DNA from: Candidatus Aquidulcis sp. | GTDB lineage: Bacteria > Chloroflexota > Anaerolineae > UBA4142 | DNA length: 64,000 nt | Direction of reading: 5' to 3' | Assembly: GCA_020723345.1 (NCBI GenBank) | Contig: DYJA01000027.1 | Location: forward strand, 794-64,793 | Shown here: positions 121-18,302 of the stretch, piece after piece | How the letters are laid out: each line of letters opens with the position of its first letter | Position numbering within the stretch: the first letter of the stretch is position 1 | Made by a program: the position numbers and the translations under genes | The notes under the pieces: generated by a model | Seen by the model: only the letters and a program-made list of their open reading frames with translations | What the model was told of the DNA's origin: nothing | Databases searched by the model: none

Positions 121-197
121 TTCAGTATCCAGTGTTCAGTATCCAGTATTCAGACCACAAGTTTCTACTGAACACTAAAAACTGAATACTGAATACT
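121..197. repeat. Imperfect hairpin built from tandem cagtattcag / cagtgttcag / cagtatccag words.
   Basis: Arms 121-153 and 168-197 are approximate reverse complements made of degenerate words. It lies in the spacer between co-oriented minus-strand genes. The same word family recurs at 4349-4419, 42392-42480, 44148-44205 and 52512-52600. Confidence 0.8.
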
Positions 198-206
198 GTT
201 CACCAT

Positions 207-1286: not shown

Positions 1287-1338
1287 CTAGTCGTTTAGTC
1301 GAATAGTCGAATAGTCACTTGACTATCTGACTATTCGA

Positions 1339-2190: not shown

Positions 2191-2360
2191 CTCTCTTCAT
2201 AGTTTCGTTTGCTTTTGATTCTTTGCTAGCCAACCAACACTTTGACTTGACGTTCGATTTGGACACTGATTCACACTGATTCGCACTGATTTTTGAATTA
2301 TCTGTGTTCATCTGTGTTTATCCGTGTTCAATTTCTGAAACTGTCGGTTAGCCAGATTTT

Positions 2361-2822
2361 TTACTTGACTTGGAGCGAAATCGTGCAACTTTCGCCGGGC
2401 GTCAACCGGGCGGAGACGGAAAATTCTTTTTCCAAGATCGTTTGCAGCGCGCCAATCAAGATGCCGCCCCAGGGACACGCGGTTCCGTCGAATTGATATT
2501 TGCCGACGCGCTTGGGACAGATGCCGCACTGCGAAATTTGGACGCTCACTTCGTTCGCGCTCTCGTCGATTGCCACGACGCCAGCCAGATTGTAGGTTTG
2601 CAGAAATTCCGCCAACGCGGGCAGCGTCTCCACGCGGATGCCTTGACTCTTGGCGTACGCCATCATTTCCCTGCCGACGTACTCGCCCGCCATATTGGCA
2701 ATCGCCTGCGCGCCGCCTTTGCCCATCACGCTGTAGGTGCCCACCATGTAACCGATGAAAACCGCGTTGAGCAAACTGGCGGGACCTTTTTCGCGCGCGG
2801 CGGGAATAATCGGAGTTGCCAT
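2361..2822 (-). CDS. Small Cys-containing protein, possibly V4R-like (4-vinyl reductase type ligand-binding domain). Function unknown.
   Basis: 153-aa ORF directly downstream of hdrCB on the same strand. The CGICPKRVG...GTACPWGG pattern resembles V4R domains. The family assignment is from memory only. Confidence 0.5.
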   Translation of the reverse strand: MATPIIPAAREKGPASLLNAVFIGYMVGTYSVMGKGGAQAIANMAGEYVGREMMAYAKSQGIRVETLPALAEFLQTYNLAGVVAIDESANEVSVQISQCGICPKRVGKYQFDGTACPWGGILIGALQTILEKEFSVSARLTPGESCTISLQVK

Positions 2823-2941
2823 TTCTATTCATGCATCTTTCTGCCAAATTCTCACTTCCATTATAACCCGAATGAGCCAATGAACCAAATAATCCGTCAA
2901 GAATTTTGGCTCATTGGCTCATCGACTCACTGACTATGCGC

Positions 2942-4330: not shown

Positions 4331-4421
4331 AGCACTCCTTGGGCAAGAGTATTCAGTGTTCAGTGTTCAGTCAACAACTCCAACAGGTTCTGAATACTGA
4401 ACACTGCATACTGAATACTAT

Positions 4422-5399
4422 TCACTCCACCACCGGTCGCGGCAGCAATCCCGCGCGTTCGAGAATCGGCTTGACGGCTTCTTCCCATTCAATCGCCATG
4501 ATGTGGACGCCCGCGACGCCGGGAGTTTCGCGCATTTGCTGGATCAGTTCGACGCAAATCTTGATGCCTTCTTCGCGCGCGGCAGCCGCCTTTTCTTTTT
4601 TATCTTCGATCCCTTTGCCCGCGCCTTCCATGCGCTGGACGTACTCGTCGAGGACTTCCATCCCCGGCACTTGGTCGCGCATGTACTTTGCCGCACCCGC
4701 TGTCTTGATCGGACCGACTCCGGCGAGGATGTACACTTTTTCGTGCAAACCCAGGTCGACGACGCGCTTCATAAATTCGCGGAATTTGGGCACGTTGTAA
4801 ATCAGTTGCGTCTGAATAAAATCGACTCCGGCTTGGACTTTTTTCGCGAGGCGATACGGGCGAAACTCGAATGGATCGGCAAACGGATTTTCCGCGCCGC
4901 CGATGAAAAAGCGCGGATTCGTTCCTTTGATCTCTTCGCCGCCCTGGAACTTGTTGCCGTCGCGCAAATCTTTGACCATCCGGATCAGCGTCATCGAATC
5001 CATATCGTACACGTTCTTCGCCATCGGATGATTGCCGAATTGCTGATGATCGCCGGAGAGGCAAAGCAGATTGCGAATGCCAAGCGCGTACGCGCCGAGC
5101 ATGTCGGCTTGCATCGCCAGACGATTGCGGTCGCGGCACGTCATCTGCATGATCGGCTCGACGCCGTTTTGCACCGACAAGGTTGCCGCGGCGATGGACG
5201 ACATGCGGACAATCGCGGTCTGGTTATCGGTGATGTTGACGCCGTCGGCGATGCCTTTGAGTTGCGCGGCTTTTTTGCGAATCACTTCCGCGTCCGCGTT
5301 CTTCGGCGGACCCAGTTCCGCGGTCGCCGCGAATTTTCCCGCGCGCAGAATTTTTTCCAGTGTGCTGCCTGATTTGTAGCCATTGGTTGCTTCAGCCAT
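4422..5399 (-). CDS. metF: Methylenetetrahydrofolate reductase, acetogen MetF type.
   Basis: 325-aa ORF with a MetF-like TIM-barrel sequence (ELGPPK, ITDNQ, CRDRN, LCLSGD). It sits next to metV and the hdr genes, as in MetFV-HdrABC-MvhD clusters. Confidence 0.9.
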   Translation of the reverse strand: MAEATNGYKSGSTLEKILRAGKFAATAELGPPKNADAEVIRKKAAQLKGIADGVNITDNQTAIVRMSSIAAATLSVQNGVEPIMQMTCRDRNRLAMQADMLGAYALGIRNLLCLSGDHQQFGNHPMAKNVYDMDSMTLIRMVKDLRDGNKFQGGEEIKGTNPRFFIGGAENPFADPFEFRPYRLAKKVQAGVDFIQTQLIYNVPKFREFMKRVVDLGLHEKVYILAGVGPIKTAGAAKYMRDQVPGMEVLDEYVQRMEGAGKGIEDKKEKAAAAREEGIKICVELIQQMRETPGVAGVHIMAIEWEEAVKPILERAGLLPRPVVE

Positions 5400-5438
5400 G
5401 TTTATCCTCCGTCTGTACGGGCGTAATTAATTACGCCC

Positions 5439-6125
5439 CTACTCTTTCGCCAGCATCAAATCTTCGCGCGAGATGCGACGCGGTCCACCGTCGCGGCTCG
5501 TCTGCCAATTCTTCGCCGGTTGAATCTCCAGCAATTTATCGAGTTCGCCGCGCGCCATCAATTTCTTGACGATCAGATCCCACGCGCAATCGACCGTGCG
5601 ATCCTTGCCGCTGATCTCGCACTTGCCTTCGTCCGAGCCGCCGCACGGTCCGTTCAGCAAACTCTTGGAGCAGCGCGCGATCGGGCAGATGCCGCCGGTG
5701 AGATCGAGGATGCAGTTGCCGCACGCCGCGCAGCGTTCCGCCCAGACGCCTTGTTCGAGCGGCAGACCCAGGAACGCGGTGTTGAGTCCGGGCGCGACGC
5801 GCGCGTCGGGAAAGTGTTCGGCAATCGCCTGCACGCCGATGCCGCAGCCGAGCGACAAGACCAAATCGTACTCGCCGATTTTGTCCTTGATCGTGTCGAG
5901 GTATTCCCATTCGCATTGACGCTGCACCGTCACCTCGTCAATCTGCTTTTCTTTGCCGTCCACTTTCGACGCCATGCGCAGCGACGACGCGAGAATGCCG
6001 ACTTCTTTTTCGCCGCCCGCGAAACAAACGGTGACGCACGTGCCGCAGCCGACGACGAGCACCTTGTTCGCGTTCGCGATTTTGGTTTTGATTTCTTCAA
6101 ACGGTTTTTGTTCTGCTACGATCAT
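5439..6125 (-). CDS. metV: Methylene-THF reductase small Fe-S/Zn subunit MetV.
   Basis: VVGCGTCVTVCFAGGE and CAACGNC motifs. The likely start is the ATG at 6125, preceded by a GGAGGA RBS. The ORF-track start at 6179 lies inside a word hairpin. Confidence 0.85.
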   Translation of the reverse strand: MIVAEQKPFEEIKTKIANANKVLVVGCGTCVTVCFAGGEKEVGILASSLRMASKVDGKEKQIDEVTVQRQCEWEYLDTIKDKIGEYDLVLSLGCGIGVQAIAEHFPDARVAPGLNTAFLGLPLEQGVWAERCAACGNCILDLTGGICPIARCSKSLLNGPCGGSDEGKCEISGKDRTVDCAWDLIVKKLMARGELDKLLEIQPAKNWQTSRDGGPRRISREDLMLAKE

Positions 6126-6213
6126 GTTATCCTCCAGGGATAGTCGATCAGGCGACTGGGCAATCAGGCGATCAGTCAATCAGGGACTAGTCAGCTGGTT
6201 ACCGATTGCCTGA

Positions 6214-6651
6214 TTACTGATTGACTGGTTGACTTTTCTTTACAGGGTTGGGACCCAATTCCTTCACACGCTCCGTCATCTCTGTCACGGCTTGTGCGAA
6301 CGCGCCGCCCATTGCGGACGACATGTGGAACATTTCGATGCGCTGTCCGCCGACGCCGATTTGGTCGAGCAATTCTTGAATATATTTCACTCTGCGTTTT
6401 GCGTTTGTGTTACCCTCCAGGTAATGACACGTCCCTTCCAGTCAGCCCGCGACCATGATGCCATCCGCGCCGCTCTCGAACGCTTTCAGCGCGTACAGCA
6501 CGTCGAGTTTGCCGGTGCACGGCAGCAGCACGACTTTGACGTTGGGCGGGTACTGAATGCGCGACGCGCCCGCCAAATCTGCCGCCGCGTACGCGCAAAA
6601 GTTGCAGCAGAACGCGATGAGTTGTGGTTCAAAGCCGTTGGGTGCGGTCAT
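6214..6651 (-). CDS. mvhD: MvhD-like 2Fe-2S electron-transfer protein with a predicted selenocysteine (TGA at 6442-6444).
   Basis: The track ORF ends ...ADGIMVAG at the TGA. The same frame continues LEGTCHYLEGNTNAKRRVKYIQELLDQIGVGGQRIEMF...ELGPNPVKKSQPVNQ to the TAA at 6214-6216. The Cys paralog at 23926-24354 has C at the TGA position. Confidence 0.8.
6410..6424 (-). promoter_or_regulatory. SECIS-like hairpin downstream of the mvhD-1 UGA.
   Basis: On the minus strand, UUACC-UGGAG-GGUAA forms a 5-bp stem with a GG-containing loop. It starts about 17 nt after the UGA. The equivalent hairpin is conserved in mvhD-2. Confidence 0.5.
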
Positions 6652-6671
6652 GGTTTGGATTCTCCAATCGT

Positions 6672-6700
6672 TTGCTTTTCAATACCGCCGATGCTATAAT
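6672..6700 (+). promoter_or_regulatory. Sigma70-like promoter for the DUF433/DUF5615 cassette.
   Basis: TTGCTT (6672-6677), a 17-nt spacer, then the extended -10 TGcTATAAT (6692-6700). It lies 43 nt upstream of the ATG at 6743. Confidence 0.55.
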
Positions 6701-6742
6701 ATCCGCACAAAACGATCCCAGAATGTTCGAGGGAGGATTCCA

Positions 6743-7069
6743 ATGACTGTTCCTGTAATTACTGAATATCGCTACATCACGCGCAATCCAGAAATCTGCG
6801 GCGGCAGACCGATTATCAAAGGCACGCGCACGCCGGTCAAAACGATTGTTGGTTACTACCGGCTTGGGCAAAGCGTCGAAGAAATTCTTGAAGGACTGCC
6901 GCATCTATCGCCTGCCCAAGTGTACGAAGCGCTCGCCTACTATCACGACAACATTTCTGAAATCGAACAAGACATCGAAGACAGCCGGGGCGAAAATTTG
7001 ATTGAGCGATACGGCTTGAAAGTTATGCCCGATGGTCGCCTTGTCGTTGAGGAACGCGGTGCCTGCTGA
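6743..7069 (+). CDS. DUF433-family antitoxin-like protein.
   Basis: The ATG at 6743 has a GGGAGG RBS at 6731-6736. The sequence ITRNPEICGGRPIIKGTRTPVKTIVGYY is the DUF433 signature. Confidence 0.8.
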   Translation: MTVPVITEYRYITRNPEICGGRPIIKGTRTPVKTIVGYYRLGQSVEEILEGLPHLSPAQVYEALAYYHDNISEIEQDIEDSRGENLIERYGLKVMPDGRLVVEERGAC

Positions 7070-7427
7070 ACCCGCGCTCTTCATTCGACTTTATCTGGAC
7101 GAAGATGTCCATCGGCGCGTTGCCGCCGCGCTTCGCTTGCGCCAATTCGACGTGGTCAGTGCTCACGAAGTTGGACGCTGGGGCTTGAGTGACGAAGAGC
7201 AACTGACGCTTGCCGCCGCCGAAGGACGCGCGCTTTTCACATTCAATCCTCCCGATTACTTGCGCCTTCATTGGAATTGGCTCCGACTTGGCAAAGAACA
7301 TTCTGGGATTATTGTCTCCGATCAACTCCCCATTGGTGAAACAGTCCGCCGACTACTCAATCTCCTCAACCGTGTGACCGCAGATGAAATGCGGAATCAG
7401 ATTTACTGGCTCCAATCCTTCAAGTAG
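7059..7427 (+). CDS. DUF5615-family PIN-like toxin candidate.
   Basis: It overlaps the upstream gene, a layout typical of TA pairs. The likely start is GTG 7059, after GAGG at 7049-7052; the ORF track offers 7032 instead. The protein begins ...FIRLYLDEDV and ends ...GIIVSDQLPIGE, as in DUF5615 proteins. Confidence 0.7.
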   Translation: MPAEPALFIRLYLDEDVHRRVAAALRLRQFDVVSAHEVGRWGLSDEEQLTLAAAEGRALFTFNPPDYLRLHWNWLRLGKEHSGIIVSDQLPIGETVRRLLNLLNRVTADEMRNQIYWLQSFK

Positions 7428-7464
7428 ACCTCACGATAACCTGCTTTAGCGGGTTTGACACCCG

Positions 7465-7554
7465 TTAAGCGTTGGTTTCAACCAATGCCGCCGCGTACGC
7501 ACAATAGTTGCAGCAGAAGGCGATGAGTTGGGGGTCGAATCCGTTGGGTGCCAT
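7465..7554 (-). pseudogene. Remnant of the mvhD 5' end (29 codons).
   Basis: Reverse translation gives MAPNGFDPQLIAFCCNYCAYAAA, then unrelated LVETNA and a stop. The first 23 residues align with the N-termini of mvhD-1 and mvhD-2 but differ at synonymous sites. Confidence 0.75.
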
Positions 7555-7595
7555 ACCTCATAGCTCCATTTGCACACCGGCACAAAGTCCAGGAC

Positions 7596-8660
7596 TCAGC
7601 CAGTGGTCGCATTCAATAATCCGAGAGTTTTCAAGATGTCTTTCAAACCTTGCAGGTGATCCAATGCACGCTGAAGATCTCGTACTTCAAAGTATCCGAT
7701 GGAATTGCGGAAGCTCTCGTCTAAAGATGTAATCTCGCGTTTGAATTCATCCAACTCATCCCTTGATGAAACAATAACAACTTTCTGAATGGTGGGATCG
7801 CGTCTAACTCTTTGAAGATTCAGAATAGCGGAGTCCCGACTTCCTTTCCTGTGTACTTCGAACGCATAAGAAATGATCCCCAAGTTCGCCACGCGGCTTC
7901 TCCAAATTGCATCAATTCGGCATCCTGGCATCACATTGAATTCTCTTTGCACCTCAAAACCGAGACCGTCACCAAGTTCGATGATCTGGTCTACAACAGT
8001 ATCATGGTCGAAATCTTCTGCGCGCACAGGTGCCGTCACAGGCGCTTCTGGGCGTATGCCTTGTAGAGAAACAAAATAGAGCAGGAAATCCAATTTGAAT
8101 AGATCATCAAATTCGGGATACTCTTTTGCCGCCTGACTACGAACATCTTGAGCCAATTTGCAGTACGAGGCGTACTGCGCGCCGCTAATCTGAGCGGACT
8201 TGGGCAGCTGAAGTTCACTAATACCAAGAACGATGAAACCCTCTCTGCTTCTGCTGTTCCAAATAGGATACTCCTTGTGGTTATGATGCGCCAGAATCTC
8301 TGAGATACAAGCAGCGCCCATCATGCGCACATTCTTCTTGACATAGTCAAATCGCTTGGCAATCGGATCTGCGCCGTACAGAAATTGCTTGAATGCGCTT
8401 CTAATTGTTGGCAGACCAGAGCGAAGCATCTCTTCAAGAAGCCAGTCCTTGTTTGTCCAGCCGTTGTACGCCCAGAGAATGTAAATCAACTCGCGTAGAG
8501 TGCCTTCTTCGAGATTCTCAAGTTGCTCTTTCGAGAAATACCGGGCAAAGAATTCGTCCTTATCTCTACGCTCTTTTTGCAACTGCTGCCCTTCTGTCTC
8601 AAGAAAGTGGCGGAATGGAGACATCAAGGCTTTCAGTGTCTGCATGTTGATTTCGTTCAT
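7596..8660 (-). CDS. Orphan two-domain protein with a C-terminal PD-(D/E)xK-like nuclease motif. It is a candidate defense or restriction-type gene.
   Basis: 354-aa ORF, visibly more AT-rich than its surroundings. The C-terminal segment RIDAIW...GIISYAFEVHRKGS resembles NucS/RecB-fold nuclease cores. The helical N-terminal domain carries LWAYNGWTNKDW. Confidence 0.6.
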   Translation of the reverse strand: MNEINMQTLKALMSPFRHFLETEGQQLQKERRDKDEFFARYFSKEQLENLEEGTLRELIYILWAYNGWTNKDWLLEEMLRSGLPTIRSAFKQFLYGADPIAKRFDYVKKNVRMMGAACISEILAHHNHKEYPIWNSRSREGFIVLGISELQLPKSAQISGAQYASYCKLAQDVRSQAAKEYPEFDDLFKLDFLLYFVSLQGIRPEAPVTAPVRAEDFDHDTVVDQIIELGDGLGFEVQREFNVMPGCRIDAIWRSRVANLGIISYAFEVHRKGSRDSAILNLQRVRRDPTIQKVVIVSSRDELDEFKREITSLDESFRNSIGYFEVRDLQRALDHLQGLKDILKTLGLLNATTG

Positions 8661-8711
8661 GGCAACCTCCGATCAGAAGACACGGCAGTTAGAAACTGCA
8701 CCTACAACTTC

Positions 8712-8950
8712 ACAAAGCCGACCTCCGTCGGCTAACCTGCGAAGGCAGGTTTCGCGCTTTCGTTAGCGCGATTTCAATCGCCCCAGTTACGCATCCACCT
8801 TCGCCCGCACCTGCCGCCGAATCAATTCGGCGTCTGACGCAGGTGAAAATCGGCTGCAAGCCGATTGCGTTTCACGCGCAGCCCGATTCTATCGGGCTTG
8901 CACCTCGTTAGCCGTGCGATTGATCGCGCGGCTTGATCGCGCGGCTTGTC
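8712..8950. repeat. Array of short stem-loops (REP-like units) plus a tandem 13-mer.
   Basis: Hairpins lie at 8717-8732, 8736-8749, 8754-8769, 8851-8863 and 8881-8897. The 13-mer tgatcgcgcggct occurs twice, at 8921-8946. The unit at 8732-8782 is homologous to 7437-7483. Confidence 0.65.
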
Positions 8951-8974
8951 GTGCGCCCCAGTTCATGCTATAAT
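8946..8974 (+). promoter_or_regulatory. Sigma70-like promoter for the DUF4258/DUF2283 cassette.
   Basis: TTGTCG (8946-8951), a 17-nt spacer, then TATAAT (8969-8974). It lies 30 nt upstream of the ATG at 9005. Confidence 0.5.
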
Positions 8975-9004
8975 CTGCGTGCGTTCGATCCTCAGGTTGG
9001 AAAC

Positions 9005-9265
9005 ATGAAATCAATCATCTACACCAAACATGCGCGAACGCAGATGCAACTACGCCAAGTCTCGGAATCCGAAACTACCGAGACAATCCGCAATCCAGAG
9101 CGAACGCAATTGGGCAAACACGGCGCAGTAAAAGCGTTTCGCACATTTCCGTTCAATGCCCAACACAACAACGTCTACTACTTATCCAAGCAAGTCGAAG
9201 TTCGTTATTTGTTAAAGCGCGCTGCGATCATCGTTCTGACCGTCATCAGCCGGTTCTTCAATTGA
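9005..9265 (+). CDS. DUF4258-family toxin-like protein.
   Basis: The ATG at 9005 gives MKSIIYTKHARTQMQLRQVSESE..., a typical DUF4258 N-terminus. A DUF2283 partner follows. Confidence 0.7.
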   Translation: MKSIIYTKHARTQMQLRQVSESETTETIRNPERTQLGKHGAVKAFRTFPFNAQHNNVYYLSKQVEVRYLLKRAAIIVLTVISRFFN

Positions 9266-9278
9266 ATGGAGTACCCAA

Positions 9279-9506
9279 ATGAAAATTTCTTATGACCCCG
9301 AAGCCGACGCAATCTATATTCATTTCCGCTCGAACGGCGCAACTGTCGCCGAGACCCGCGAAGTGACTGAAGAAATTCTCGTGGACGTTGACGAAAAGGA
9401 AAACATCGTCGGTCTTGAAATTTTATTTGCGTCCAAACAAATCCCCGTCGCGGATCTCTCCTCTGTCACGATCGAAGGTTTGGTGCAACTCGCCAAAGCC
9501 GCGTGA
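9279..9506 (+). CDS. DUF2283-family antitoxin-like protein.
   Basis: The 75-aa sequence MKISYDPEADAIYIHF...IVGLEIL is the DUF2283 signature. Confidence 0.8.
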   Translation: MKISYDPEADAIYIHFRSNGATVAETREVTEEILVDVDEKENIVGLEILFASKQIPVADLSSVTIEGLVQLAKAA

Positions 9507-9613
9507 CAGTCAATCAGGCAATCGGTAATCAGGCGATCAGTAATCGGGCAGTCAGGACTGGTTGACTGATTGCCTAGTTGACTGGTTGCCCAATTGCCTG
9601 ATTGACCAGTTGC
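9507..9613. repeat. Word hairpin of the caatcagg / gattgac family. It spans the spacer and the last codons of hdrA-1.
   Basis: The left arm is intergenic (9507-9555). The right arm (9560-9613) encodes the C-terminal tail ...ERQLVNQAIGQPVN of hdrA-1 on the minus strand. Confidence 0.75.
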
Positions 9614-12600
9614 CTTTCCTCAAACAACGCTTCCACCTTCGCGATCACCTGCCCATCCTTATAGTGCATCAACTGAATCGCCTTGCCCGGACATTCCGCC
9701 GCGCAGATACCGCAACCCTGGCACGCCGCCGCTTCGATGTGCGCCGCGCCGTAAATACCGCCAATCGCTAGTTTTGCCGTGTCAATGCGCGGGACGCGGT
9801 ACGGGCAGATGCGAACGCACGTCAGACAGCCGGTGCATTTTTCCGCGTCGACTTGCGCGACGATGCCGCCCGCGTGCAACTTGTCTTTGGACAAAATCGT
9901 CGCGGCGCGCGCGGCGGCGGCTTGCGCTTGCGCGATCGCTTCGTTCGGAAATTTCGGATAATGCGCCGCGCCCGCAACGAACACGCCTTCCGTCGCGAAA
10001 TCGACCGGGCGCAGTTTCACATGCGCTTCCAGGAACCAACCGTCCGTGTCGACCGGCACTTTCAAAATGTTTGCCAACTCGCGCGCGTCCTCGTGCGGTG
10101 TCAGCGGCGACGCGACGACGACGAGATCGGCGTTCAGCGTGATTTCCTCGCGCAGCATTGGCTCCCAAACGCGGACGCTGACCGCCGACCGCCGACCGCC
10201 GACCGCCGTCTGCCGTCGGTCGTCTGCGGTCTCAATTTTCGGCAAATGCGCGTCGTCGTAGTGAATGATGACCACGCCGCGCTTGCGCGCTTCTTGATAA
10301 ATCCGCTCGCGAAAGCCGTATGTGCGAATGTCTTTTGTAAGGATCGTCACGCGCGCGTTCGGGTTCAACTCCTTCAAGCGCAGCGCGTTTTCCAGCGACT
10401 CGGTGCAGCACAAGCGTCCGCAATATTTTTCCGCGGGACCGACGCATTGGATGAAAACAACGGTCAATCGGGGATCGGTCAATCGGGCAATCGGTTGCCT
10501 AGTCGCCTGGTTGACTGATTGACTAATTGACTGATTGACTAGTTGACTAAACTCCGACTGCGTGATAACCCGCGCGTCCTTCCCCAAGCCATACGCGTCG
10601 CCGCGCCATTCTTGCGCGCCCGTCGCGACGATGACGACGCCGTGCTTGACCGTTTGCTCCGCGCCGTCCGCGCGTCTCAGGCGACTAACGAAATTGCCGA
10701 CGAAACCGGTTGTCTCAACCACCTGGGTTTCTCGATGAACGAAGATGCGCGGATGCGCGCCCACATGCGCGATCAACTCCCGCGTGTACGTGCCCCAATC
10801 GGTTCCGACTGTTGACTGTTCACTGTTGACACTCAACTGTCCCCCGAGATGCGCGCTCTTCTCGACCAAATGCACCGGGAAACCCTGCTCCGCGAGATTC
10901 AGCGCGGCGTTCATTCCCGCGATCCCGCCGCCGATCACGAGCGCGCTTTTGTCGAGCGCCACCGGCACTTTGAACAGCGGTTCGAGTTGCGACACACGCG
11001 CGACGGACGCGCGCACCAAATCCTTCGCCTTCTGCGTTGCTACGTTCCAGTCATGCGAATGGACCCACGAACACTGATTGCGAATGTTCGCCATCTCGAA
11101 CAGATACGCATTCAGCCCCGCCATCCGAATCGAATCCTGAAACAGCGGCTCGTGCGTGCGCGGGGTGCAGGCAGAGACCACCACGCGATTCAAGTTCTGT
11201 TCCTTCACGACCTGCGTGATGCGCGCAATCGAATCTTGCGAGCAGGTGTACAGATTCGTTTCAGCGTGAACGACATTGGGTAAAGTGCGCGCGTACTCCG
11301 CGACCGCTTTCACGTCCAGATAGCCCGCGATGTTCGACCCGCAGTGGCAGACGAACACGCCGACGCGCGGCGACTCTTGCGCGATCTCGCGCTCCGGCGG
11401 ATACTCTTTGCGCCGCGCCAACGCGCCGCGCACTTGCGCCAGCAACACCTCCGCGTTCGCCGCCGCGCCGCTCGCGTCCATCACCGTTTCCGGAATATCT
11501 TTCGGTTCGATGAACGGACCCGCCGCGAAAATTCCCGCGCGCGACGTTTCGAGCGGGCGAAACGGAATCGTCTGGCAGAATCCGTAATCGTCGAGCGCGA
11601 CGCCCAGTTTCATTCCCAGGTCGCGTACCCTTTGCGAAATCTCCATCCCGACGGAGAGGACGACGAGATCAAACTCCTCTTCAATGATAGGCAATCGGTC
11701 AATCAGGGATCGGTCAACTGGTTGCCCAATCGCCTGATCGCCTGATTGACTAATTGACTCGGCATAGCGTACGACGAGATTTCCATTCGCCGGATTTTCC
11801 TTCACCGCCGAGACGCGGCACCGCGAATACTTGACCCCGTACCGCTCCCGCGCGCGTTGATAATATTCCGCGTACCCTTTGCTGAACGCGCGCGCGTCCA
11901 TCATAAAAATGTGAATGTCCGCGTCGCGGTCGTGCTCCTTCGCGATCATCGCCTCTTTCGCGGCGTACATACAGCAGACCGCGCTGCAATAATCGTGGGT
12001 CTGATCGCGCGAGCCGATGCACTGCAAGAACGCAATCTTGCGCGCGGGCTTGCCATCGCTTGGTCGCGTCACATGCCCGCTCGTCGGACCCGACGCGGAG
12101 AGCAAGCGTTCGAATTGCAGACTCGTGACGACGTTCGGGAATCGTCCGAAACCGAATTCCTCCGACAATTCCGCGCGGTACACCTCGTACCCCGGCGCGA
12201 GAATCACCGCGCCGACCTGGATTTGATCTTCGCGCTCGACCATCTCGTGGACGATGGCGTTGACGCCGCACGCCTTGACGCACTGATAACACTCGGCGCA
12301 CAAGCCGCACGCGAGACAGCGCTCCGCTTCCGCGACCGCCTGCTCCTCGGTCAGCACTTGCTCCACTTCCCGAAAATCGCCGACGCGCGCCGCGACCGGT
12401 TCCGTCGCGATCCGGGGTCGTGCGCCGCGCGTGATTTCGCCGCGCGCGCGTTTCGCTTCGATTTCCGCGTCGGTCCATTTGCCAACCGGCAACGGCTGCT
12501 CTTCACGCGCGCTGATCATCGGCAAGCCGCGCAGATGGCGATGAATCGAAAGCGCGCCGCGCCGCCCCGCCGCAATCGCGTCGATCAGCATTCCCGGACC

Positions 12601-14211
12601 TTGCGCCGCATCGCCTCCGGCAAAAATGCCTGGGACGTTCGTTGCGAGTGTGATGGAATCCACGTGGAACCAGCCCTCGCGCGCAACCTTCAAACCGTGA
12701 TCCGGCGTGAGGAGCGAAATCTCCGGCGCTTGCGCGACCGCCGCGATCAGCGCGTCCGCTTCGATGACGAATTCCGAACCTGGGATCGGCACCGGGCGGC
12801 GTCGCCCGCTCGCGTCCGGCTCGCCGAGTTGCATCCGCACGCAGCGCACGCCGCGCACGCGTCCGTCGTCGCGCAGCACCTCGACCGGCGCGGTGAGCAA
12901 CTCGACGCGCATCCCTTCCGCTTCACCGGCGGCGACCTCGTGCGGCAGCGCGGGCATCTCCGCGCGCGTGCGGCGGTAAAGCAGCGTCACCTCTTGCGCG
13001 CCGACGCGCCGCGCGGTGCGCGCCGCGTCGATCGCGGTGTTGCCGCCGCCGACGACGATGACGCGCTTGCCCAGTTCGACCTTTTCGCCCAGACTCACGC
13101 GCCGCAAGAACGCGACGCCGTAATGCACGCCGCTTGTCCCGCGTTCGCCGGGAATTCCCAGTTCCTGCGGTTGATGCGCGCCGACCGCGAGAAAAATCGC
13201 TTTGAATCCTTGGCGAAAAAGATCGCGCAAGTCATGCACCGGGCGATTCAGCCGAATCTCAACGCCTTCTGCGCGAATGTCGTCAATCTCGCGCTCGAGC
13301 ACCGCGCGCGGCAGACGATACGCGGGAATCCCGACGCGCATCATGCCGCCCGCGACCGACAGCGCCTCGAACACCGTCGCTTTGTAGCCGAATCGCGCGA
13401 GGTGGTGCGCGCACGAAAGCCCGGCGGGACCTGAGCCAACAATCGCGATTTCTTCGGCGTACTGGCGCTCCGGCGCGATCACCGGCGCGCCCGCTTGCTG
13501 ATCGGCGACGAACCGCTTGAGCGCGCAGATCGCGATTGGCTCGTCCACCTGTCCGCGCGAACATTCGCTCTCGCACGGATGCGAGCAGACCCGTCCGACC
13601 GTCGCGGGAAACGGATTGTACTGCTTGATCACTTCGAGCGCGTCCGCGTAGCGCCGCGCCTTGATCAGCGCGACGTACCCCTGCGCGCTCGTGTTCGCCG
13701 GGCAAGTCGCTTTGCACGGCGCGATACCGCGCTTTTCGATCGCGTACGCCGCGGGAATCGCTTGCGGATAAAGCCGGTACGCCGCGTGGCGCTTCGACAG
13801 ATGCTCGTTGTACGGATCGGGCAAAACGATCGGACAGACTTTTTCGCAATCGCCGCAGCCGATGCACTGGGTCACGTCCACGTAGCGCGGCTTGCGTTTC
13901 AGCGTCGCGGTGAAATTGCCCGCCGCGCCGTTCACGTCGAGCACTTGCGTATCGGTCAATATTTCGATGTTAAGGTGCCGCCCTGCTTCGACGAGGCGCG
14001 GCGCGAGCGTACACATCGCGCAATCGTTCGTCGGGAACGTCTTGTCGAGTTGCGCCATGTGTCCGCCGATGGCGGATTTGGATTCGACGAGATAGACTTT
14101 GAATCCGCTTTCGGCGAGATCGAGCGCGGCTTGAATTCCGCCGACGCCACCGCCGACGACCATCACCGCGCCGATCGGGGTGTTCGATTGAGCATGACCT
14201 TCATCAGCCAT
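9574..14211 (-). CDS. hdrA: Giant HdrA-like flavoprotein: HdrA N-terminal module + GltD/NfnB-like NAD(P)H module + rest of HdrA + a second HdrA-like module.
   Basis: 1545 aa. VVGGGVGGIQAALDLA...TNDCAMC is the HdrA FAD/Cys motif. CSHPCESECSRG...IVGSGPAGLSCA is GltD-like. A second GGGIAGMNAALNLA module follows, then the C-terminal CTGCLTCVRICP...CQGCGICAAECP ferredoxin domain. Confidence 0.9.
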   Translation of the reverse strand: MADEGHAQSNTPIGAVMVVGGGVGGIQAALDLAESGFKVYLVESKSAIGGHMAQLDKTFPTNDCAMCTLAPRLVEAGRHLNIEILTDTQVLDVNGAAGNFTATLKRKPRYVDVTQCIGCGDCEKVCPIVLPDPYNEHLSKRHAAYRLYPQAIPAAYAIEKRGIAPCKATCPANTSAQGYVALIKARRYADALEVIKQYNPFPATVGRVCSHPCESECSRGQVDEPIAICALKRFVADQQAGAPVIAPERQYAEEIAIVGSGPAGLSCAHHLARFGYKATVFEALSVAGGMMRVGIPAYRLPRAVLEREIDDIRAEGVEIRLNRPVHDLRDLFRQGFKAIFLAVGAHQPQELGIPGERGTSGVHYGVAFLRRVSLGEKVELGKRVIVVGGGNTAIDAARTARRVGAQEVTLLYRRTRAEMPALPHEVAAGEAEGMRVELLTAPVEVLRDDGRVRGVRCVRMQLGEPDASGRRRPVPIPGSEFVIEADALIAAVAQAPEISLLTPDHGLKVAREGWFHVDSITLATNVPGIFAGGDAAQGPGMLIDAIAAGRRGALSIHRHLRGLPMISAREEQPLPVGKWTDAEIEAKRARGEITRGARPRIATEPVAARVGDFREVEQVLTEEQAVAEAERCLACGLCAECYQCVKACGVNAIVHEMVEREDQIQVGAVILAPGYEVYRAELSEEFGFGRFPNVVTSLQFERLLSASGPTSGHVTRPSDGKPARKIAFLQCIGSRDQTHDYCSAVCCMYAAKEAMIAKEHDRDADIHIFMMDARAFSKGYAEYYQRARERYGVKYSRCRVSAVKENPANGNLVVRYAESISQSGDQAIGQPVDRSLIDRLPIIEEEFDLVVLSVGMEISQRVRDLGMKLGVALDDYGFCQTIPFRPLETSRAGIFAAGPFIEPKDIPETVMDASGAAANAEVLLAQVRGALARRKEYPPEREIAQESPRVGVFVCHCGSNIAGYLDVKAVAEYARTLPNVVHAETNLYTCSQDSIARITQVVKEQNLNRVVVSACTPRTHEPLFQDSIRMAGLNAYLFEMANIRNQCSWVHSHDWNVATQKAKDLVRASVARVSQLEPLFKVPVALDKSALVIGGGIAGMNAALNLAEQGFPVHLVEKSAHLGGQLSVNSEQSTVGTDWGTYTRELIAHVGAHPRIFVHRETQVVETTGFVGNFVSRLRRADGAEQTVKHGVVIVATGAQEWRGDAYGLGKDARVITQSEFSQLVNQSISQSVNQATRQPIARLTDPRLTVVFIQCVGPAEKYCGRLCCTESLENALRLKELNPNARVTILTKDIRTYGFRERIYQEARKRGVVIIHYDDAHLPKIETADDRRQTAVGGRRSAVSVRVWEPMLREEITLNADLVVVASPLTPHEDARELANILKVPVDTDGWFLEAHVKLRPVDFATEGVFVAGAAHYPKFPNEAIAQAQAAAARAATILSKDKLHAGGIVAQVDAEKCTGCLTCVRICPYRVPRIDTAKLAIGGIYGAAHIEAAACQGCGICAAECPGKAIQLMHYKDGQVIAKVEALFEERQLVNQAIGQPVN

Positions 14212-14287
14212 TGCCTCACCTACTTTCCACGCGTGCTCAACGCGCGTTCACACCGCGACAACCCGATTCATTCGGGTCGAATCCGGA

Positions 14288-14647
14288 TCAACCACTCAGC
14301 GCTTTTATCCGCCGTAACAACTCCGCCGGTCGTACCGGCTTTTCGATATACTCCACCGGTTTGACGCCGACCGTCGGCATCGCGCTCAAACTGCCGGAGA
14401 GACTCGTCAGCAAAATCACCGGCACATCCGCCAGCCCTGGCTCCGCTTGCAATTTCTCATAGATATCAAACCCGCTCTCGCCCGGCATGATCACGTCGAG
14501 AATGATCAGGTCGGGGCGCGCCGCGCGCGCCTGCGCCAATCCCGCCGCGCCGCTGTACGCGATGTCCACTTGGTACGGCGCGCTCTCCAACACCGTGCGC
14601 GTGGCTTCCACAAAATCGCGGTCGTCGTCAATCACCAGAATTCGCAT
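14288..14647 (-). CDS. Single-domain response regulator (receiver).
   Basis: MRILVIDDD...LIILDVIMPGESG...EKP matches the CheY-like receiver pattern. Confidence 0.85.
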   Translation of the reverse strand: MRILVIDDDRDFVEATRTVLESAPYQVDIAYSGAAGLAQARAARPDLIILDVIMPGESGFDIYEKLQAEPGLADVPVILLTSLSGSLSAMPTVGVKPVEYIEKPVRPAELLRRIKALSG

Positions 14648-14658
14648 ATTTCATTCGT

Positions 14659-15849
14659 TCATTCGTTTATTCGTTCTCGATTCGTCGACACCCACTGTCT
14701 CCGTCGCATCTCCGGAGTTTGCAAATTGCGCGGAATCACCACCGTAAATCGCGTCCCCGTTTTGCCTTCGCCATACGGGCTTGAGACGCGAATCGCGCCG
14801 CCGTGCGCGTCCATAATTTTCTTGGCGAGCGCCAAACCCAGCCCGGTACCGGGCGCGTCGCCCACATTATCCGCGCGATAAAAATCTTCAAAGATGTGCG
14901 GCAGATCTTCCGGCGGAATGCCAACTCCTTCGTCTTCAACTTCGAAGTACAGCGTGTCCGGCTCGTACCACGCGCGAAAGACCACGGCGCTGCCTTCGGG
15001 CGAGAACTTGACGGCGTTGCTGAGCAGATTGGTCAGGACCTGCCGCAGCCGGCGGCGCGCGCCGACGATCTTCTCGAAATGCGGCGGCGGCACGATTTTG
15101 ATTTTGATGTTGCGCTCCGCCGCCGCCAGCCGCACATCCTCGAACGCTTCGGTGCCAACCTCGCCGGGATCGAACCATTCGAAATCGGCTTGGATTTGCT
15201 CCGGGCGCATCCGCGCCAGGTCCACCAGATCGCCGATCAGGGCGCGCAAATCTCGGACGCGCAGCAAACTGCGCTGCAACATGCGCTGCTGCTTTTCGGT
15301 CAGGTCGCCCGTAAAGCGATCCAGCATCACCTGGAGATAATTCTCGATCGCGGACAGCGGCGCGCGCAATTCGTGCGACGCGATCGATAGAAAGAACGTC
15401 AGCGTGTCCATCGCGTTCTTGTAGCGCGTGCCGATCAGCGACGCGAGCGCCGTCAAAACTTTGAGCCCGGCGGCGGGATGCCGCTCCAGGTACTCGCGCA
15501 GCGCCGCGCCGTCAATGGCGATCACGCGCGTCGGCTCCAGGCACAGCCCGGTCGAGGTGTAAACGTAGGGTTGCACGAGCGCGGACCACCCCGCCACGCT
15601 GCCCGGTTCGACATAGCCGACGGTTGCCGCGCGCGCTTTGGCGCGTTTGCTCAACTGAATCTTTTTCTCCAGCGCCAGTTTTCCGGACTCGACCAGAAAC
15701 AACCGCTCGGCGCGCGCGTCTTCGGTCAGCAATACGGCGTTTTCCGGATGCGCCTCTTCGCGGCAGAACCGGGCGATGTCCGTCAATTCCGCGTCGGTCA
15801 GTTCGCCAAAAATATCTGACTGTTTCAAGCGTTCACTCAGATTTCCCAT
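14659..15849 (-). CDS. Histidine kinase with an N-terminal cyclic-nucleotide-binding-like domain.
   Basis: The N-terminus is cNMP-binding-like (IFGELTDAEL...LFLVESGKL). The H-box is SIASHELRAPLSAI, and an HATPase domain is present (NAVKF, DEGVGI, GTGLGLA). Confidence 0.85.
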   Translation of the reverse strand: MGNLSERLKQSDIFGELTDAELTDIARFCREEAHPENAVLLTEDARAERLFLVESGKLALEKKIQLSKRAKARAATVGYVEPGSVAGWSALVQPYVYTSTGLCLEPTRVIAIDGAALREYLERHPAAGLKVLTALASLIGTRYKNAMDTLTFFLSIASHELRAPLSAIENYLQVMLDRFTGDLTEKQQRMLQRSLLRVRDLRALIGDLVDLARMRPEQIQADFEWFDPGEVGTEAFEDVRLAAAERNIKIKIVPPPHFEKIVGARRRLRQVLTNLLSNAVKFSPEGSAVVFRAWYEPDTLYFEVEDEGVGIPPEDLPHIFEDFYRADNVGDAPGTGLGLALAKKIMDAHGGAIRVSSPYGEGKTGTRFTVVIPRNLQTPEMRRRQWVSTNRERINE

Positions 15850-17230
15850 CCGCCATTACCTTGGGCAGAAGACACGAAAACTTGCTGCCGCTGTGGTCCA
15901 CGCAGTACGGACTCTCCACCCAGATCTTTCCGCCGTGCGCTTCGATAATGCGGCGCGCCGTGCTGAGTCCCAATCCCGCGCCGGGGATGAATTCGCCCTC
16001 GCGCACGCGAAAATAATCTTCGAAGATGTGCGGCAAACGACTCGCCGGAATACCTACGCCGGTATCTGTCACCTCGATGCGGACGTGCTCGCGCTCTTCC
16101 GCCAAAGTCAGAACGACCTGACCGCCCGGCGGGGTGAACTTGATCCCGTTGTCCAGCAAGTTAACCAGGAGACGGCGCAGGCGCTTGGGCGAACCGCGCA
16201 GGGTGAACCGCGCGGACGGCGCAATGCTCTCGATGTTCACGCCTTTCTCTTTCGCCCGCACGTCCACATCCTCCAACGCTTGCCGCGCCACGACCGCCAA
16301 GTTGGTTTGCTCCATCTCCTGCGCGATGCGCCGCGCGTCCAGCAGAGATACGTCGAGAAAATCGTTGATGAGTTGGAGCAGTTCTTCCAAACGCGCCAGG
16401 GTTCGTTCCAACCAGTGACGCTGTTTGGGCGCAACTTCTCCGGCGTAACCGTCGAGAATCGTCTGCACGTAGTTGACCGCGACCGCCAGCGGCGTTTTCA
16501 GATCGTGCGAAGCGAGGCCGAGAAAGAAGGTTCGCATCCGGTCGAGTTCCGCCAATTGATCCCGCGCCCGTTCCAGTTCGCGCATCTGGGCTTGCCGCCG
16601 CCGCCGCAATTCGCTGGCGATGCTGATCGCAACCCCGGAGACAACACTCAGCGTGGCGGTGAAAGCCGCCAGCACCGCCGCGACGTACGCGCTTTCGCGG
16701 TACATCTCTTCCCGGAAAAACCCGCCGAGGTGGATATGGGGCAGCCAGCCCCAATATTCTCCGGCAACCAAACCGGCGAAGAGACCGAGCGCGAGCGCCG
16801 TCACCCAGATCATATCGCGCGCGGGAAGCAAGAGATTGCCCAAGCCGACGTGAATCAAGTAGAATAGAAAAAATGGATTCTCGATGCCGCCGGTCAGGTG
16901 AATCAGTCCGGTCAAACCAACAAGGTCGGTGATGATTTGGGCGTGCGCGAAAATTCGTCCACGCCGCACGCGCGTCTCGGCAGACGCCTCGGCGCGCTGC
17001 TCCCAGTTTGCCCACAAGAAAAAGATCGAATTTAAAAGTGCGATGGCAAACGCCATTTGAAACAGCGGCGCGGCTGGAAACTGTACGTCGAAAACTTGCT
17101 GCGCCAGCACGACACCGCCGATGATCGCCGCAACCGCGACCCAGCGCAGGACGATGTATTGCCGCAGTCGCCGCGGCAGTTCGATCTCTTCTGCGAGTCC
17201 CTCGTTCAGCGGGACGTTTGCCGTTTCCAT
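15833..17230 (-). CDS. Membrane sensor histidine kinase.
   Basis: Multiple TM helices are followed by the H-box GLASHDLKTPLAV and an HATPase domain. The ATG at 17230 is preferred because the track start at 17320 lies inside a tcgattttcgat word hairpin. The start remains uncertain. Confidence 0.8.
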   Translation of the reverse strand: METANVPLNEGLAEEIELPRRLRQYIVLRWVAVAAIIGGVVLAQQVFDVQFPAAPLFQMAFAIALLNSIFFLWANWEQRAEASAETRVRRGRIFAHAQIITDLVGLTGLIHLTGGIENPFFLFYLIHVGLGNLLLPARDMIWVTALALGLFAGLVAGEYWGWLPHIHLGGFFREEMYRESAYVAAVLAAFTATLSVVSGVAISIASELRRRRQAQMRELERARDQLAELDRMRTFFLGLASHDLKTPLAVAVNYVQTILDGYAGEVAPKQRHWLERTLARLEELLQLINDFLDVSLLDARRIAQEMEQTNLAVVARQALEDVDVRAKEKGVNIESIAPSARFTLRGSPKRLRRLLVNLLDNGIKFTPPGGQVVLTLAEEREHVRIEVTDTGVGIPASRLPHIFEDYFRVREGEFIPGAGLGLSTARRIIEAHGGKIWVESPYCVDHSGSKFSCLLPKVMADGKSE

Positions 17231-17326
17231 CGTCGGTCCCAGAATTTTCGATTTCTGATTTTCGATTTTCGATTTGACTCTTGAACGACCGCCAGCAATC
17301 GAAAATCGGCAATCGCCCATCGAAAA

Positions 17327-17713
17327 TCATTTGAGCAGCGCTTTGACGCGCCGCAATAACTCCGCGGGTGCCACGGGTTTTTGCGCATAGTCTTGCACAT
17401 CCATCGCCAGACCTGTCTCCAACTCATAACGCCGGCGGCTCGCGTCTTCGACAACGGTGGTGAGAACCATAATCGGCACGTCCGCGAACTGGGGATCGCG
17501 GCGCATCTCCCGGATGACGCCCCAGCCGTCCAGGCGCGGCATCAACAAATCCAGGATCAACAGATCCGGCGCTCTTTGCGCGATCATCTCCAGACATTTC
17601 TTGCCGTCGCGCGCCGTTGCCAGGTGATAGGGCTGAGTCTCCAGAACGGCGGTGATGCCATCGAGAATGTCCGGGTCGTCATCCACAATCAAGATGTACG
17701 GTTTGTCTCCCAT
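17327..17713 (-). CDS. Single-domain response regulator (receiver).
   Basis: MGDKPYILIVDDDPDILD...LLILDLLMPRLDG. The ATG at 17713 follows a GAGGGAGG RBS. The longer track ORF would run into the mvhD-2 tail. Confidence 0.85.
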   Translation of the reverse strand: MGDKPYILIVDDDPDILDGITAVLETQPYHLATARDGKKCLEMIAQRAPDLLILDLLMPRLDGWGVIREMRRDPQFADVPIMVLTTVVEDASRRRYELETGLAMDVQDYAQKPVAPAELLRRVKALLK

Positions 17714-17812
17714 CGCCCCCTCCCTCGGAGTGACGGGTGACATGTGAGATTGCAGGTGACACGGCATCTCGCGCGCTTGCCACATGTCACTTGCTACTCT
17801 TCTTGTCACTTG

Positions 17813-18247
17813 TCACACGCCACTTGCCACTTTCTTCACCGGATTCGGTCCCATACGCTTGATCTCGGCGGTCAACTCAGCCACAGAGAAGGCGAATTGC
17901 CCGCCCATCGCCGACGACAAGTTGATCATCTGGACCCGGCGTCCTTCGAGACCGATCTGCTCCAACAACTGGCTGACGTATTCCACACGCTTGCGTGCCC
18001 GCAGATTACCTTCCAGGTAATGACAATCGCCTTCCAGTCAGCCCGCCACTAGCACACCATCGGCGCCATCCTCGAACGCGCGCAGCACGTACAACACGTC
18101 AAGTTTCCCGGTGCAAGGCAACTCGATGACCTTGATACAAGTCGGATACTCGAGGCGCATACTGCCTGCCAGGTCGGCGGCGGCGTACGCGCAATAGTGA
18201 CAACAAAAAGCGATGATTTGTGGTTCGAAGCCGTTGGATCCAGTCAC
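17813..18247 (-). CDS. mvhD: MvhD-like protein with a predicted selenocysteine (TGA at 18038-18040).
   Basis: The track ORF ends ...DGVLVAG at the TGA. The same frame continues LEGDCHYLEGNLRARKRVEYVSQLLEQIGLEGRRVQMINL...MGPNPVKKVASGV to the TGA at 17813-17815. The likely start is GTG 18247, after GGAG. Confidence 0.8.
18005..18021 (-). promoter_or_regulatory. SECIS-like hairpin downstream of the mvhD-2 UGA.
   Basis: AUUACC-UGGAA-GGUAAU forms a 6-bp stem with a 5-nt loop. It starts 16 nt after the UGA. Confidence 0.55.
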
Positions 18248-18302
18248 GTGTTTCTCCAAGTCAAGCAATCAGTGATTGGTCAATCAGAAATCGGGCGATC
18301 GG

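Follow-up and report, generated by a model that had tools for sequence, protein, structure and literature searches.

The stretch of DNA analyzed here (the window; 64,000 nucleotides, positions 794 to 64,793 of contig DYJA01000027.1 in assembly GCA_020723345.1 of Candidatus Aquidulcis sp.) comes from an Anaerolineae-like Chloroflexota genome and is a Wood-Ljungdahl island, with genes for formyltetrahydrofolate synthetase (FTHFS), carbon monoxide dehydrogenase (CODH), acetyl-CoA synthase (ACS), AcsC/D-like proteins, RACo, a pterin-binding methyltransferase, FolD, MetF, MetV, and an HdrCB-like protein. Three hdrA paralogs are located on its minus strand: hdrA-1 (9574-14211; 1545 amino acids [aa]), hdrA-2 (18303-23060; 1585 aa, ~60% identical to hdrA-1), and hdrA-3 (24432-27641; 1069 aa), which is without the GltD-like module. 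The subject of this report is a set of short segments within hdrA-1 and hdrA-2 that are built from tandem 8-nucleotide (nt) words, fold as hairpins, and have relatives in the spacers and gene ends of the same window.

The open reading frame (ORF) of hdrA-1, its translation, and its Pfam matches indicate an HdrL-type fusion, in which an HdrA module is split by a GltD/NfnB-like module and followed by a second HdrA module. Both hdrA-1 and hdrA-2 have two FAD/NAD(P) oxidoreductase modules, a GltD/NfnB-like module (Fer4_20 plus Pyr_redox_2), and ferredoxin domains, the Pfam families in the hdrA genes being Pyr_redox_2, FAD_oxidored, and Fer4. Residues 640-1545 of hdrA-1 match HdrA of Methanothermococcus thermolithotrophicus (5ODC_A) with an E value of 2e-152; 8RVU, 7BKB, and 9SFI are further structural matches. 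The match to 5ODC_A justifies the label HdrA-type for a protein of HdrL-like architecture, and by homology to structurally characterized HdrA the host genes are identified as encoding heterodisulfide reductase subunit A. In relatives, as in the window, flpD, metV, metF, and hdrCB-like genes cluster with hdrA.

The original prediction, made from the sequence of the window, was that word-repeat hairpins are inserted in frame at the same two positions (here sites A and B) of hdrA-1 and hdrA-2. All four segments are present, with limits within a few bases of those predicted. In hdrA-1, the site A insert (11690-11758, minus strand; aa ~818-841, ...ESISQSGDQAIGQPVDRSLIDRLP...) is an 8-nt-word hairpin in a beta-hairpin turn (fold z score, -3.6 as DNA and -5.7 as RNA), and the site B insert (10463-10549, minus strand; aa ~1221-1251, ...SQLVNQSISQSVNQATRQPIARLTDPRLT...; z = -4.2) is an 8-nt-word hairpin directly ahead of the IQCVG strand of HdrA module 2. 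In hdrA-2, the same word family is found at site A (20474-20559, minus strand; aa ~832-867) and site B (19207-19291, minus strand; aa ~1253-1286). Folding of the four segments as single-stranded DNA gave z scores of -4.2, -3.6, -2.4, and -2.6. The original prediction was correct as to the peptides quoted, the conserved blocks on either side, and the continuation of the frame across the inserts, and hdrA-3 does have short, ordinary sequence at sites A and B.

The same words form further elements in the window, to which no strand is assigned. One spans the stop codon of hdrA-1 (9509-9614; z = -5.3) and makes up the final ~13 codons (...RQLVNQAIGQPVN) together with the stop of this gene, the relatives of which end in ...EERELVAA. 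Another spans the stop codon of hdrA-2 (18279-18348; tail, ...GQPVNQSIGQSVVS). Two copies are intergenic, one (6143-6233) upstream of metV (DUF5981) and one right after the gene at 56986-58062 (58079-58155). Three of these had been put forward as spacer elements and fold with z scores of -5.3, -4.6, and -4.8; 6143-6233 and 58079-58155 are indeed intergenic, but the third, 9507-9613, extends into hdrA-1, where it covers the stop and the 13 codons ahead of it.

A common architecture was apparent in all 8 copies: 3-5 sense words, a palindromic center (...CGGTCAACTGGTTGCCCAA...), and 4-8 antisense words. One arm consists of tandem 8-nt words of the form G(G/T)CAATC(A/G) and the other of their reverse complement. 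The elements are 69-106 nt in size, and the repeat DNA within ORFs is 69-87 nt. When the 64-kb window was searched for clusters of at least three words (G[GT]CAATCN), 8 genuine elements were found compared to ~0.9 expected from shuffled sequence, and a two-word pattern (GKCRATCRGKCRATCRGK) had 13 matches compared to 0.00 expected. The family, referred to below as the CAATCAGG family, is enriched at gene ends. In a scan of metagenome contigs with a three-word pattern, loci L099, L124, and L157 resemble the family among the matches listed, most of the others being unrelated microsatellite-like arrays. The copies on these contigs follow metG (L099) and adjoin pdxS (L157), which argues against a regulon-specific role, and a restriction of the family to the hdr/met regulon was therefore rejected. 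A protein search with the concatenated insert peptides as the query returned 2 spurious ORFs and missed hdrA itself, probably because of low-complexity filtering.

In order to delimit the inserts, hdrA-1 and hdrA-2 were compared to an outgroup panel of loci from named genomes, obtained by a profile search with an HdrA alignment, which missed the closest relatives. Among the matches listed, site A has an invariable baseline of 26 aa in Desulfobacterota/Syntrophia, Acidobacteriota, Bacillota, and others, and is a beta-turn of the TEDGQ type; the baseline at site B is 39 aa in outgroup HdrL and 44 aa in some Acidobacteriota. Sites A and B are 45 and 52 aa in hdrA-1 (net gains of 19 and 13 aa) and 54 and 57 aa in hdrA-2 (net gains of 28 and 18 aa). 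The repeat DNA (69-87 nt) exceeds the net gain (39-57 nt), and thus part of the original turn or linker has been overwritten.

Although sites A and B are shared by the two paralogs as predicted, they are not the only such positions, because there are at least four hot loops (A to D) plus the C-terminal tail. Site C carries 7-nt GCGGTC/GACGACC words in hdrA-1 (10176-10232, minus strand; ...TADDRRQTAVGGRRSAVS...), where Tandem Repeats Finder (TRF) detected an array that forms a weak hairpin (z = -2.5), and words of the same type in hdrA-2 (18911-18969, minus strand; ...ADDRPQTADSSGQRSAVNGR...). The site C peptides of both proteins are of the type DDRRQTA..GGRRSAV, and hdrA-3 has a weak 7-mer array at this site (25054-25083, minus strand). 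The site D array of hdrA-1, also detected with TRF (10796-10840, minus strand), consists of CAACAGT-type 7-mers that encode ...LSVNSEQSTVGTD... (SVNSEQS).

Mapped on 5ODC_A, site A falls in the hairpin ...NLVVRAEDT/LLGEILEKEYDLVVLSVG (residues ~470-490), and site C lies ahead of the strand of the second module that is equivalent to that of site A. In an AlphaFold2 model of hdrA-1 residues 640-1545 (mean predicted local distance difference test score [pLDDT], 75; predicted template modeling score, 0.72), site A corresponds to model residues 181-200, with pLDDT below 50, between strands 173-178 and 203-208. The other hot loops also have pLDDT below 50 (model residues 488-497 at D, 594-599 in part of B and at its minimum, 694-700 at C, and 893-906 in the tail), and the remaining stretches of such low scores are the N terminus of the fragment (1-21) and residues 67-70, 656-660, and 758-762. 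The low pLDDT suggests that the word-derived peptides at A to D and in the tail are disordered loops between regular secondary-structure elements.

The length of every insert is a multiple of 3, and the conserved protein resumes in frame past each one. Each copy within an ORF is open in the frame of its gene, whereas the other frames carry 1-4 stops, except that one extra frame is open at site A of hdrA-2. None of the 6 frames is open in the two purely intergenic copies. TAG and TGA are never seen at codon phase 0 of the coding strand, where CAG and CGA are found instead, and the widely differing inserts of dozens of homologues likewise keep the frame. Frame keeping and avoidance of in-phase stops are the expected footprint of selection for read-through and argue against excision or bypass.

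It had also been proposed, more speculatively, that the segments are removed or bypassed during expression, whether as an intron, as an intein, by translational bypass, or by DNA excision, so that the mature enzyme would be without them. Beyond the general oddity of hairpins within an ORF, nothing direct speaks for this proposal. Neither the multiple-of-3 lengths, nor the open gene frame, nor the absence of in-phase stops would be needed if the segments were removed, and inserts that differ in length and sequence are all in frame across dozens of homologues. Furthermore, no Rfam family such as a group I or group II intron was matched in the window, and the segments (23-36 aa, without splicing motifs) are well under the size of inteins (at least ~130 aa with splice-junction motifs). 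Removal or bypass is thus scarcely credible. From these frame and stop statistics, the inserts are almost certainly translated. The peptide YAESISQSGDQAIGQPVDR is an example of a predicted tryptic product of an hdrA-1 insert.

The same loops are variable in other genomes. The best 120 of thousands of homologues in the database were from metagenomic sources, and those with names were Chloroflexota metagenome-assembled genomes (MAGs; Chloroflexi, Anaerolineae, and Thermoflexales). In these 120 sequences sites A to D are highly variable and have word-like peptides, such as PTSNLQLPTSNLQ, NPQSAIRNPQ, DLPIHQST repeated four times, GDQGSGIG repeated nine times, and SLRAERSNPQS..EIASSQKPLLAMT. Near neighbors on the tree may differ in loop length by up to 30 residues, and none of the sites is expanded in one Chloroflexota clade of 13 sequences. 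At the DNA level, 13 genes from 8 Chloroflexota genomes were surveyed, which yielded 44 expansions of at least 8 aa. Period-7/8 structure was detected in 37 of the 44, compared to 0 of 300 control coding segments, and strong hairpins (z of -2.5 or lower) in 12 of the 44, compared to 2% of controls. Thus, the constant feature is the word array and not the hairpin. Half of the expansions (22/44) have 12-mers in common with DNA of the same contig outside the gene.

The words themselves are specific to lineages. Among 83 loci from other genomes, the CAATCAGG family was found in 1, L001 (GCA_040753115.1), where the same inserts are present at 88-91% nucleotide identity. The inserts are not artifacts, because L001 was assembled independently of the window. 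At the same four sites, two other orthologous loci (L002 and L003) carry different words, with nucleotide identities to the window of 31-35%, which is the random level.

Several observations in these loci concern site A and the paralogs more generally. A non-tandem palindrome that encodes ...VSLRAERSNPQS..EEIASSQKPLLAMT..., located in L003 at 12470-12580 and 9899-9945, occupies site A in two related genomes (those of L003 and L209) and in L003 has a copy in the spacer directly upstream of the same gene. Site A of L205 contains another long palindrome (HSERSEESLRRS...). These palindromes indicate that several repeat classes use site A. The L001 gene at 183-4889 (GCA_040753115.1) and the L208 gene at 3001-7536 are hybrids of an hdrA-1-like C-terminal half (about 87-100%) and an N-terminal portion of ~700 aa that resembles hdrA-2 or diverges in other ways (identity per 100-aa block, 34-85%). 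Either real recombination between paralogs or chimeric MAG assembly could have generated these genes.

The duplication that gave rise to hdrA-1 and hdrA-2 is older than the split of the window genome from L002 and L003, as synteny is conserved and the paralogs group with their orthologues. Together with the unrelated words of L002 and L003, this means that it was after the split that the CAATCAGG family arrived at both 3' ends and at a minimum of four internal sites. The occurrence of inserts at the same positions in both paralogs is therefore best explained by inherited hypervariable loops rather than by two coincident insertions, because unrelated arrays expand the same loops in orthologues of both paralogs elsewhere. 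The same-site inserts of the two paralogs are 0.66 and 0.71 identical, any two family members are 0.58-0.72 identical, and the flanking coding DNA is at a comparable level. Gene conversion between paralog inserts is not indicated, as same-site identity is no higher than that of other family pairs or of the flanks.

It was considered whether the arrays might instead have arisen in place, without input from repeats at other loci, by replication slippage and local inverted duplication of the sequence that each loop already had, with the likeness to spacer elements reflecting a shared mutational bias. The words of sites C and D (GCGGTC/GGQRSAV and CAACAGT/SVNSEQS) are consistent with such an origin, since they are common to genomes and paralogs at the same sites and resemble codons of the ancestral DG-turn. 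The number of units is not constant among orthologues (the 3' element differs in this respect between the window and L001), all units of an array may switch together to another word (TCAATTAG in the window, CCAATTAG in L002), and expansions are found in loci with array-free flanks (L042 and L045). However, origin in place does not readily account for the three-part architecture and palindromic center of the CAATCAGG family at unrelated loci (6143, 58079, and after metG in L099), nor for same-site inserts of the paralogs that are no closer to each other than other family pairs are. The unrelated words of the L002 and L003 orthologues also require that the family reached at least 6 hdrA positions after the split. 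For these reasons an origin in place seems unlikely.

Comparisons of orthologous inserts gave a two-state result. No better identity than that of shuffled sequence was detected in 94 of 108 pair-by-site comparisons (87%), whereas flanking 4-fold degenerate sites are 51-83% identical. About a dozen comparisons in which the insert was retained are at or above the neutral identity of the flanks, and intermediates are rare. Between the window and L001, the divergence of the inserts is 0.108, compared to a proportion of synonymous differences of 0.375 in the flanks (synonymous divergence [dS], 0.52; binomial P = 5e-17). Similar differences were observed between L002 and L208, in which the arrays are one-armed (0.036 versus 0.227; P = 4e-10), and at site B between L209 and L204 (0.254 versus 0.458; P = 7e-4). 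Within the inserts of the window and L001, dS is 0.16 and nonsynonymous divergence (dN) is 0.10, which corresponds to a dN/dS ratio (omega) of ~0.66, compared to 0.12 in the flanks; the constraint is thus not on the peptide. One-armed arrays are equally conserved, so that the property under constraint cannot be hairpin structure alone. The differences that were observed fall into clusters of whole-word swaps (GTCAAC to GGCGAT), concerted changes of arrays, and changes in unit number. A passive insertion decaying neutrally would not be expected to give this conserved-or-replaced pattern, in which retained inserts are conserved above the neutral level at all codon positions. Either selection at the nucleotide level or a biased homogenizing process may be the source of the conservation.

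One interpretation of these data is that the arrays and hairpins are kept for a function at the level of nucleic acid, such as stabilization or processing of the mRNA, pausing of ribosomes or polymerase between cofactor modules, or binding of a protein or gyrase, and that the peptide loops are a tolerated by-product. The hdrA arrays would then be dual-coding, kept by selection or by sequence-specific maintenance for a role in the 4.6-kb mRNA or DNA; the evidence is an evolutionary rate several-fold below that of neighboring synonymous positions, up to the point of wholesale replacement. Low divergence in three independent orthologous pairs, an omega that places the constraint elsewhere than on the peptide, the strength of the hairpins, and the recurrence of arrays at the same sites in many lineages are all consistent with such a function, as is the finding that, among the Wood-Ljungdahl genes of the window, only hdrA has internal arrays. 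If this were true, the same dual-coding maintenance would also account for the presence of word hairpins at almost all gene ends in these Chloroflexota. However, homologues outside the Chloroflexota and the 13-member clade have no expansion, so that the arrays are dispensable for enzyme and mRNA; just 12 of the 44 expansions form hairpins, and replacement has affected 87% of the orthologous inserts. Compensatory changes were not evident, and in simulations of hairpin stability the result was significant in only one direction per site (P = 0.001 and 0.22 at site A; P = 0.006 and 0.60 at site B). The hairpins also have no T-tracts and no Rfam match. A nucleic-acid-level role, dual-coding maintenance included, is therefore regarded as a tentative alternative with a minor share of the probability.

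The interpretation that we favor, with a probability of roughly 70%, is that the segments belong to a lineage-specific, dispersed family of word-hairpin repeats, of which they are translated copies inserted in frame. This agrees with the suggestion in the original prediction of an intergenic repeat class in permissive loops, which is supported by the dispersed copies, the enrichment at gene ends, and the predicted disorder of the loops. The loops would have become expandable before the hdrA-1/hdrA-2 duplication and been overwritten repeatedly since, so that the loops of each genome would carry the words of that genome and orthologous inserts would usually be unrelated. Insertion or replacement may have proceeded by template switching, by conversion between arrays, or by slippage. 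The copies seen are those with lengths in multiples of 3 and words that avoid in-phase TAG and TGA, presumably the only ones to survive, and survival would also call for a hydrophilic, disordered product. An 8-nt unit would be read in all three frames in turn, giving peptides rich in Q, S, N, G, D, and R with 8-aa periodicity. The outgroups and the Chloroflexota clade without inserts indicate that the enzyme does not need them, and at the protein level the inserts are probably neutral.

Several results weigh against this interpretation. Seven of the 8 copies of the family lie within the 15-kb hdr/met cluster (6143-20559). Neither target-site duplications nor terminal signatures were visible in the 8 copies with their flanks, and no transposase or RAYT gene was found among the ~38 window ORFs scanned. 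Retained inserts are 2- to 6-fold less divergent than flanking synonymous sites, unlike a passive passenger, and translation, as opposed to excision, was judged from frame and stop statistics. Furthermore, a model of abundant repeats and permissive loops predicts that loop expansion tracks array load, but tracking of local array density was not supported (Spearman coefficient, -0.05; n = 53).

A related observation comes from two Desulfobacterota MAG loci, L017 and L019, in which array density (0.75-0.82 per kb) is as high as in the window and HdrL is without expansions; array abundance alone does not lead to colonization.

Several known repeat systems resemble these elements. Rickettsia palindromic elements (RPEs) are, as summarized in PMC10969869 (citing Ogata et al. 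2000, 2002), in-frame palindromic repeats of housekeeping genes, described as palindromes of unique sequence of ~100-150 bp that encode a conserved peptide and are divided into RPE-1 to RPE-10. The likeness lies in a dispersed palindromic family found both in spacers and in frame within genes, with the peptide retained at positions compatible with the fold. In the window there are likewise 8 dispersed copies with hairpin potential (z scores of -2.4 to -5.3), and all 4 internal copies keep the reading frame and are open in it. The elements described here differ in size (69-106 nt), in arms made of 8-nt words, and in peptides that are 8-aa periodic and not common to the copies, which are 58-72% identical, and their host is a member of the Chloroflexota, not Rickettsia, so that a relationship in sequence is not expected. 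Size, structure, and host thus set them apart, by description, from the RPEs. A further difference is that the same loops are reoccupied by different families in different lineages, with 87% of orthologous inserts unrelated; to our knowledge, such reoccupation has not been described for RPEs.

In DNA structure, the elements resemble the short tandemly repeated repetitive (STRR) heptamers of cyanobacteria and the TAACTGA repeats of Beggiatoaceae and cyanobacteria, which PMC4679880 (citing Mrazek et al. 2007) treats as long simple-sequence repeats (LSSRs) with units of 5-11 nt. The Beggiatoaceae and cyanobacterial heptamers are mostly intergenic, often overlap stop codons, and occasionally occur in ORFs at the protein periphery; one orientation has stops in all frames and the other is the one found in ORFs (PMC4679880). 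The arrays described here are also lineage-specific tandem words of 7-8 nt that are mainly noncoding and overlap stops, and descriptively they belong with the LSSRs of 5- to 11-nt units, the cyanobacterial and Beggiatoaceae heptamers being nearest. However, they are typically paired with an inverted array to form long hairpins, are located at gene 3' ends, unlike STRRs and LSSRs, which are just upstream of start codons, and in many genomes fall at orthologous positions within a conserved multidomain enzyme, in its internal loops.

Repetitive extragenic palindromic (REP) sequences may be species-specific in sequence and yet occupy orthologous spacers, and stabilization of mRNA and gyrase binding have been proposed as their roles. 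Like REPs and bacterial interspersed mosaic elements, the word hairpins are short palindromic repeats at gene ends. However, REPs are 20-40 bp in size, have GTAG/CGTC tags, are extragenic by definition, and are associated with RAYT (PMC3733652). The elements in the window are outside this size range, and tandem-word arms are not a REP feature. Among the ~38 ORFs scanned, which represent one 64-kb window of the genome, there was no match to Y1_Tnp. Miniature inverted-repeat transposable elements also differ, as neither target-site duplications nor distinct termini were visible in the 8 copies with their flanks and no transposase gene was found in the window. No description of such elements in Chloroflexota was found in the literature, coverage of which was incomplete. 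A hairpin of words that is read in frame, the recurrent use of the same loops by different families, and the conserved-or-replaced dynamics appear to be new.

The inserts are of interest as a natural experiment in the evolution of protein loops, in which four or five loops of a cofactor-rich enzyme have been rewritten with lineage-specific words. They illustrate the tolerance of an enzyme of the flavin-based electron-bifurcating type for nonhomologous sequence at those loops. The hot loops are candidate sites for the engineering of tags. The inserts inflate alignment gaps and may mislead annotation, phylogeny, and structure prediction of HdrA and HdrL in MAGs. Two-state evolution of the inserts goes beyond simple models of repeat decay and may hint at a new mechanism for the maintenance or replacement of short-unit repeats in bacteria.

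The CAATCAGG family is one of several types of word hairpin in the window, a word hairpin being a tandem 7- or 8-mer array followed by an inverted partner array. At least 20 further word hairpins, from ~10 other word families, nearly all abut gene ends. The words include CAGTATT, TCACGCA/CGTGATA, GATTTCA, TAGTCNNN, AATGACA, AAGGATG, AGACAAGG, CAAGTAGA, and others. These hairpins are located at 114-220, 1288-1348, 4340-4429, 24371-24422, 34599-34685, 38163-38235, 38727-38773, 42395-42480, 42739-42788, 44150-44202, 45173-45240, 46231-46317, 46988-47040, 49346-49435, 50005-50099, 52523-52606, 52944-53092, 54775-54859, 60176-60244, and 60845-60939, and almost without exception they adjoin stop or start codons of Wood-Ljungdahl genes. 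They were located with a sliding RNAfold scan; an ungapped inverted-repeat scan missed most of the imperfect hairpins. When the window was analyzed with TRF, 51 merged arrays of period 6-9 were obtained, 37 of which are outside or at the ends of confident coding sequences (those with high GC content at third codon positions [GC3]). Genuine arrays deep within coding sequences are almost confined to the three hdrA paralogs, and no internal arrays were found in the other Wood-Ljungdahl genes of the window. Rfam gave 0 matches at the gathering threshold in the window. A role as intrinsic terminators was rejected, as no word hairpin has a T-tract, which makes the hairpins unlike such terminators, and terminator-like sites were fewer than expected from shuffled sequence.

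The strongest local fold of the window (50407-50498; z = -5.9, -66.6 kcal/mol) is a hairpin of G/C runs (CCCCATCCCCGTTCCCCTTCCCCC...GGGGGAAGGGGCAGGGGTAGGGGG) between a small ferredoxin gene (50101-50472) and a CODH gene (50498-52507). Between hdrA-1 and hdrA-2 (14288-17809) there are two response regulators and two histidine kinases, one of which has a cyclic nucleotide-binding domain, and this arrangement is conserved in L002, L003, L204, and L206. A CTTGCCA array of eight units (17776-17832) overlaps the predicted N terminus of the response regulator at 17327-17809, and a GATTTTC-type array (17246-17275) is located within the first 25 codons of the histidine kinase at 15833-17320. It is possible that the start codons of these two genes have been called too far upstream. 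An Rrf2-type regulator (27651-28142) precedes hdrA-3. The gene at 29069-33229 encodes a 1386-aa Kelch/beta-propeller repeat protein with a GC3 of 0.54, compared to 0.70-0.79 in neighboring genes, and from this low GC3 it may have been acquired horizontally.

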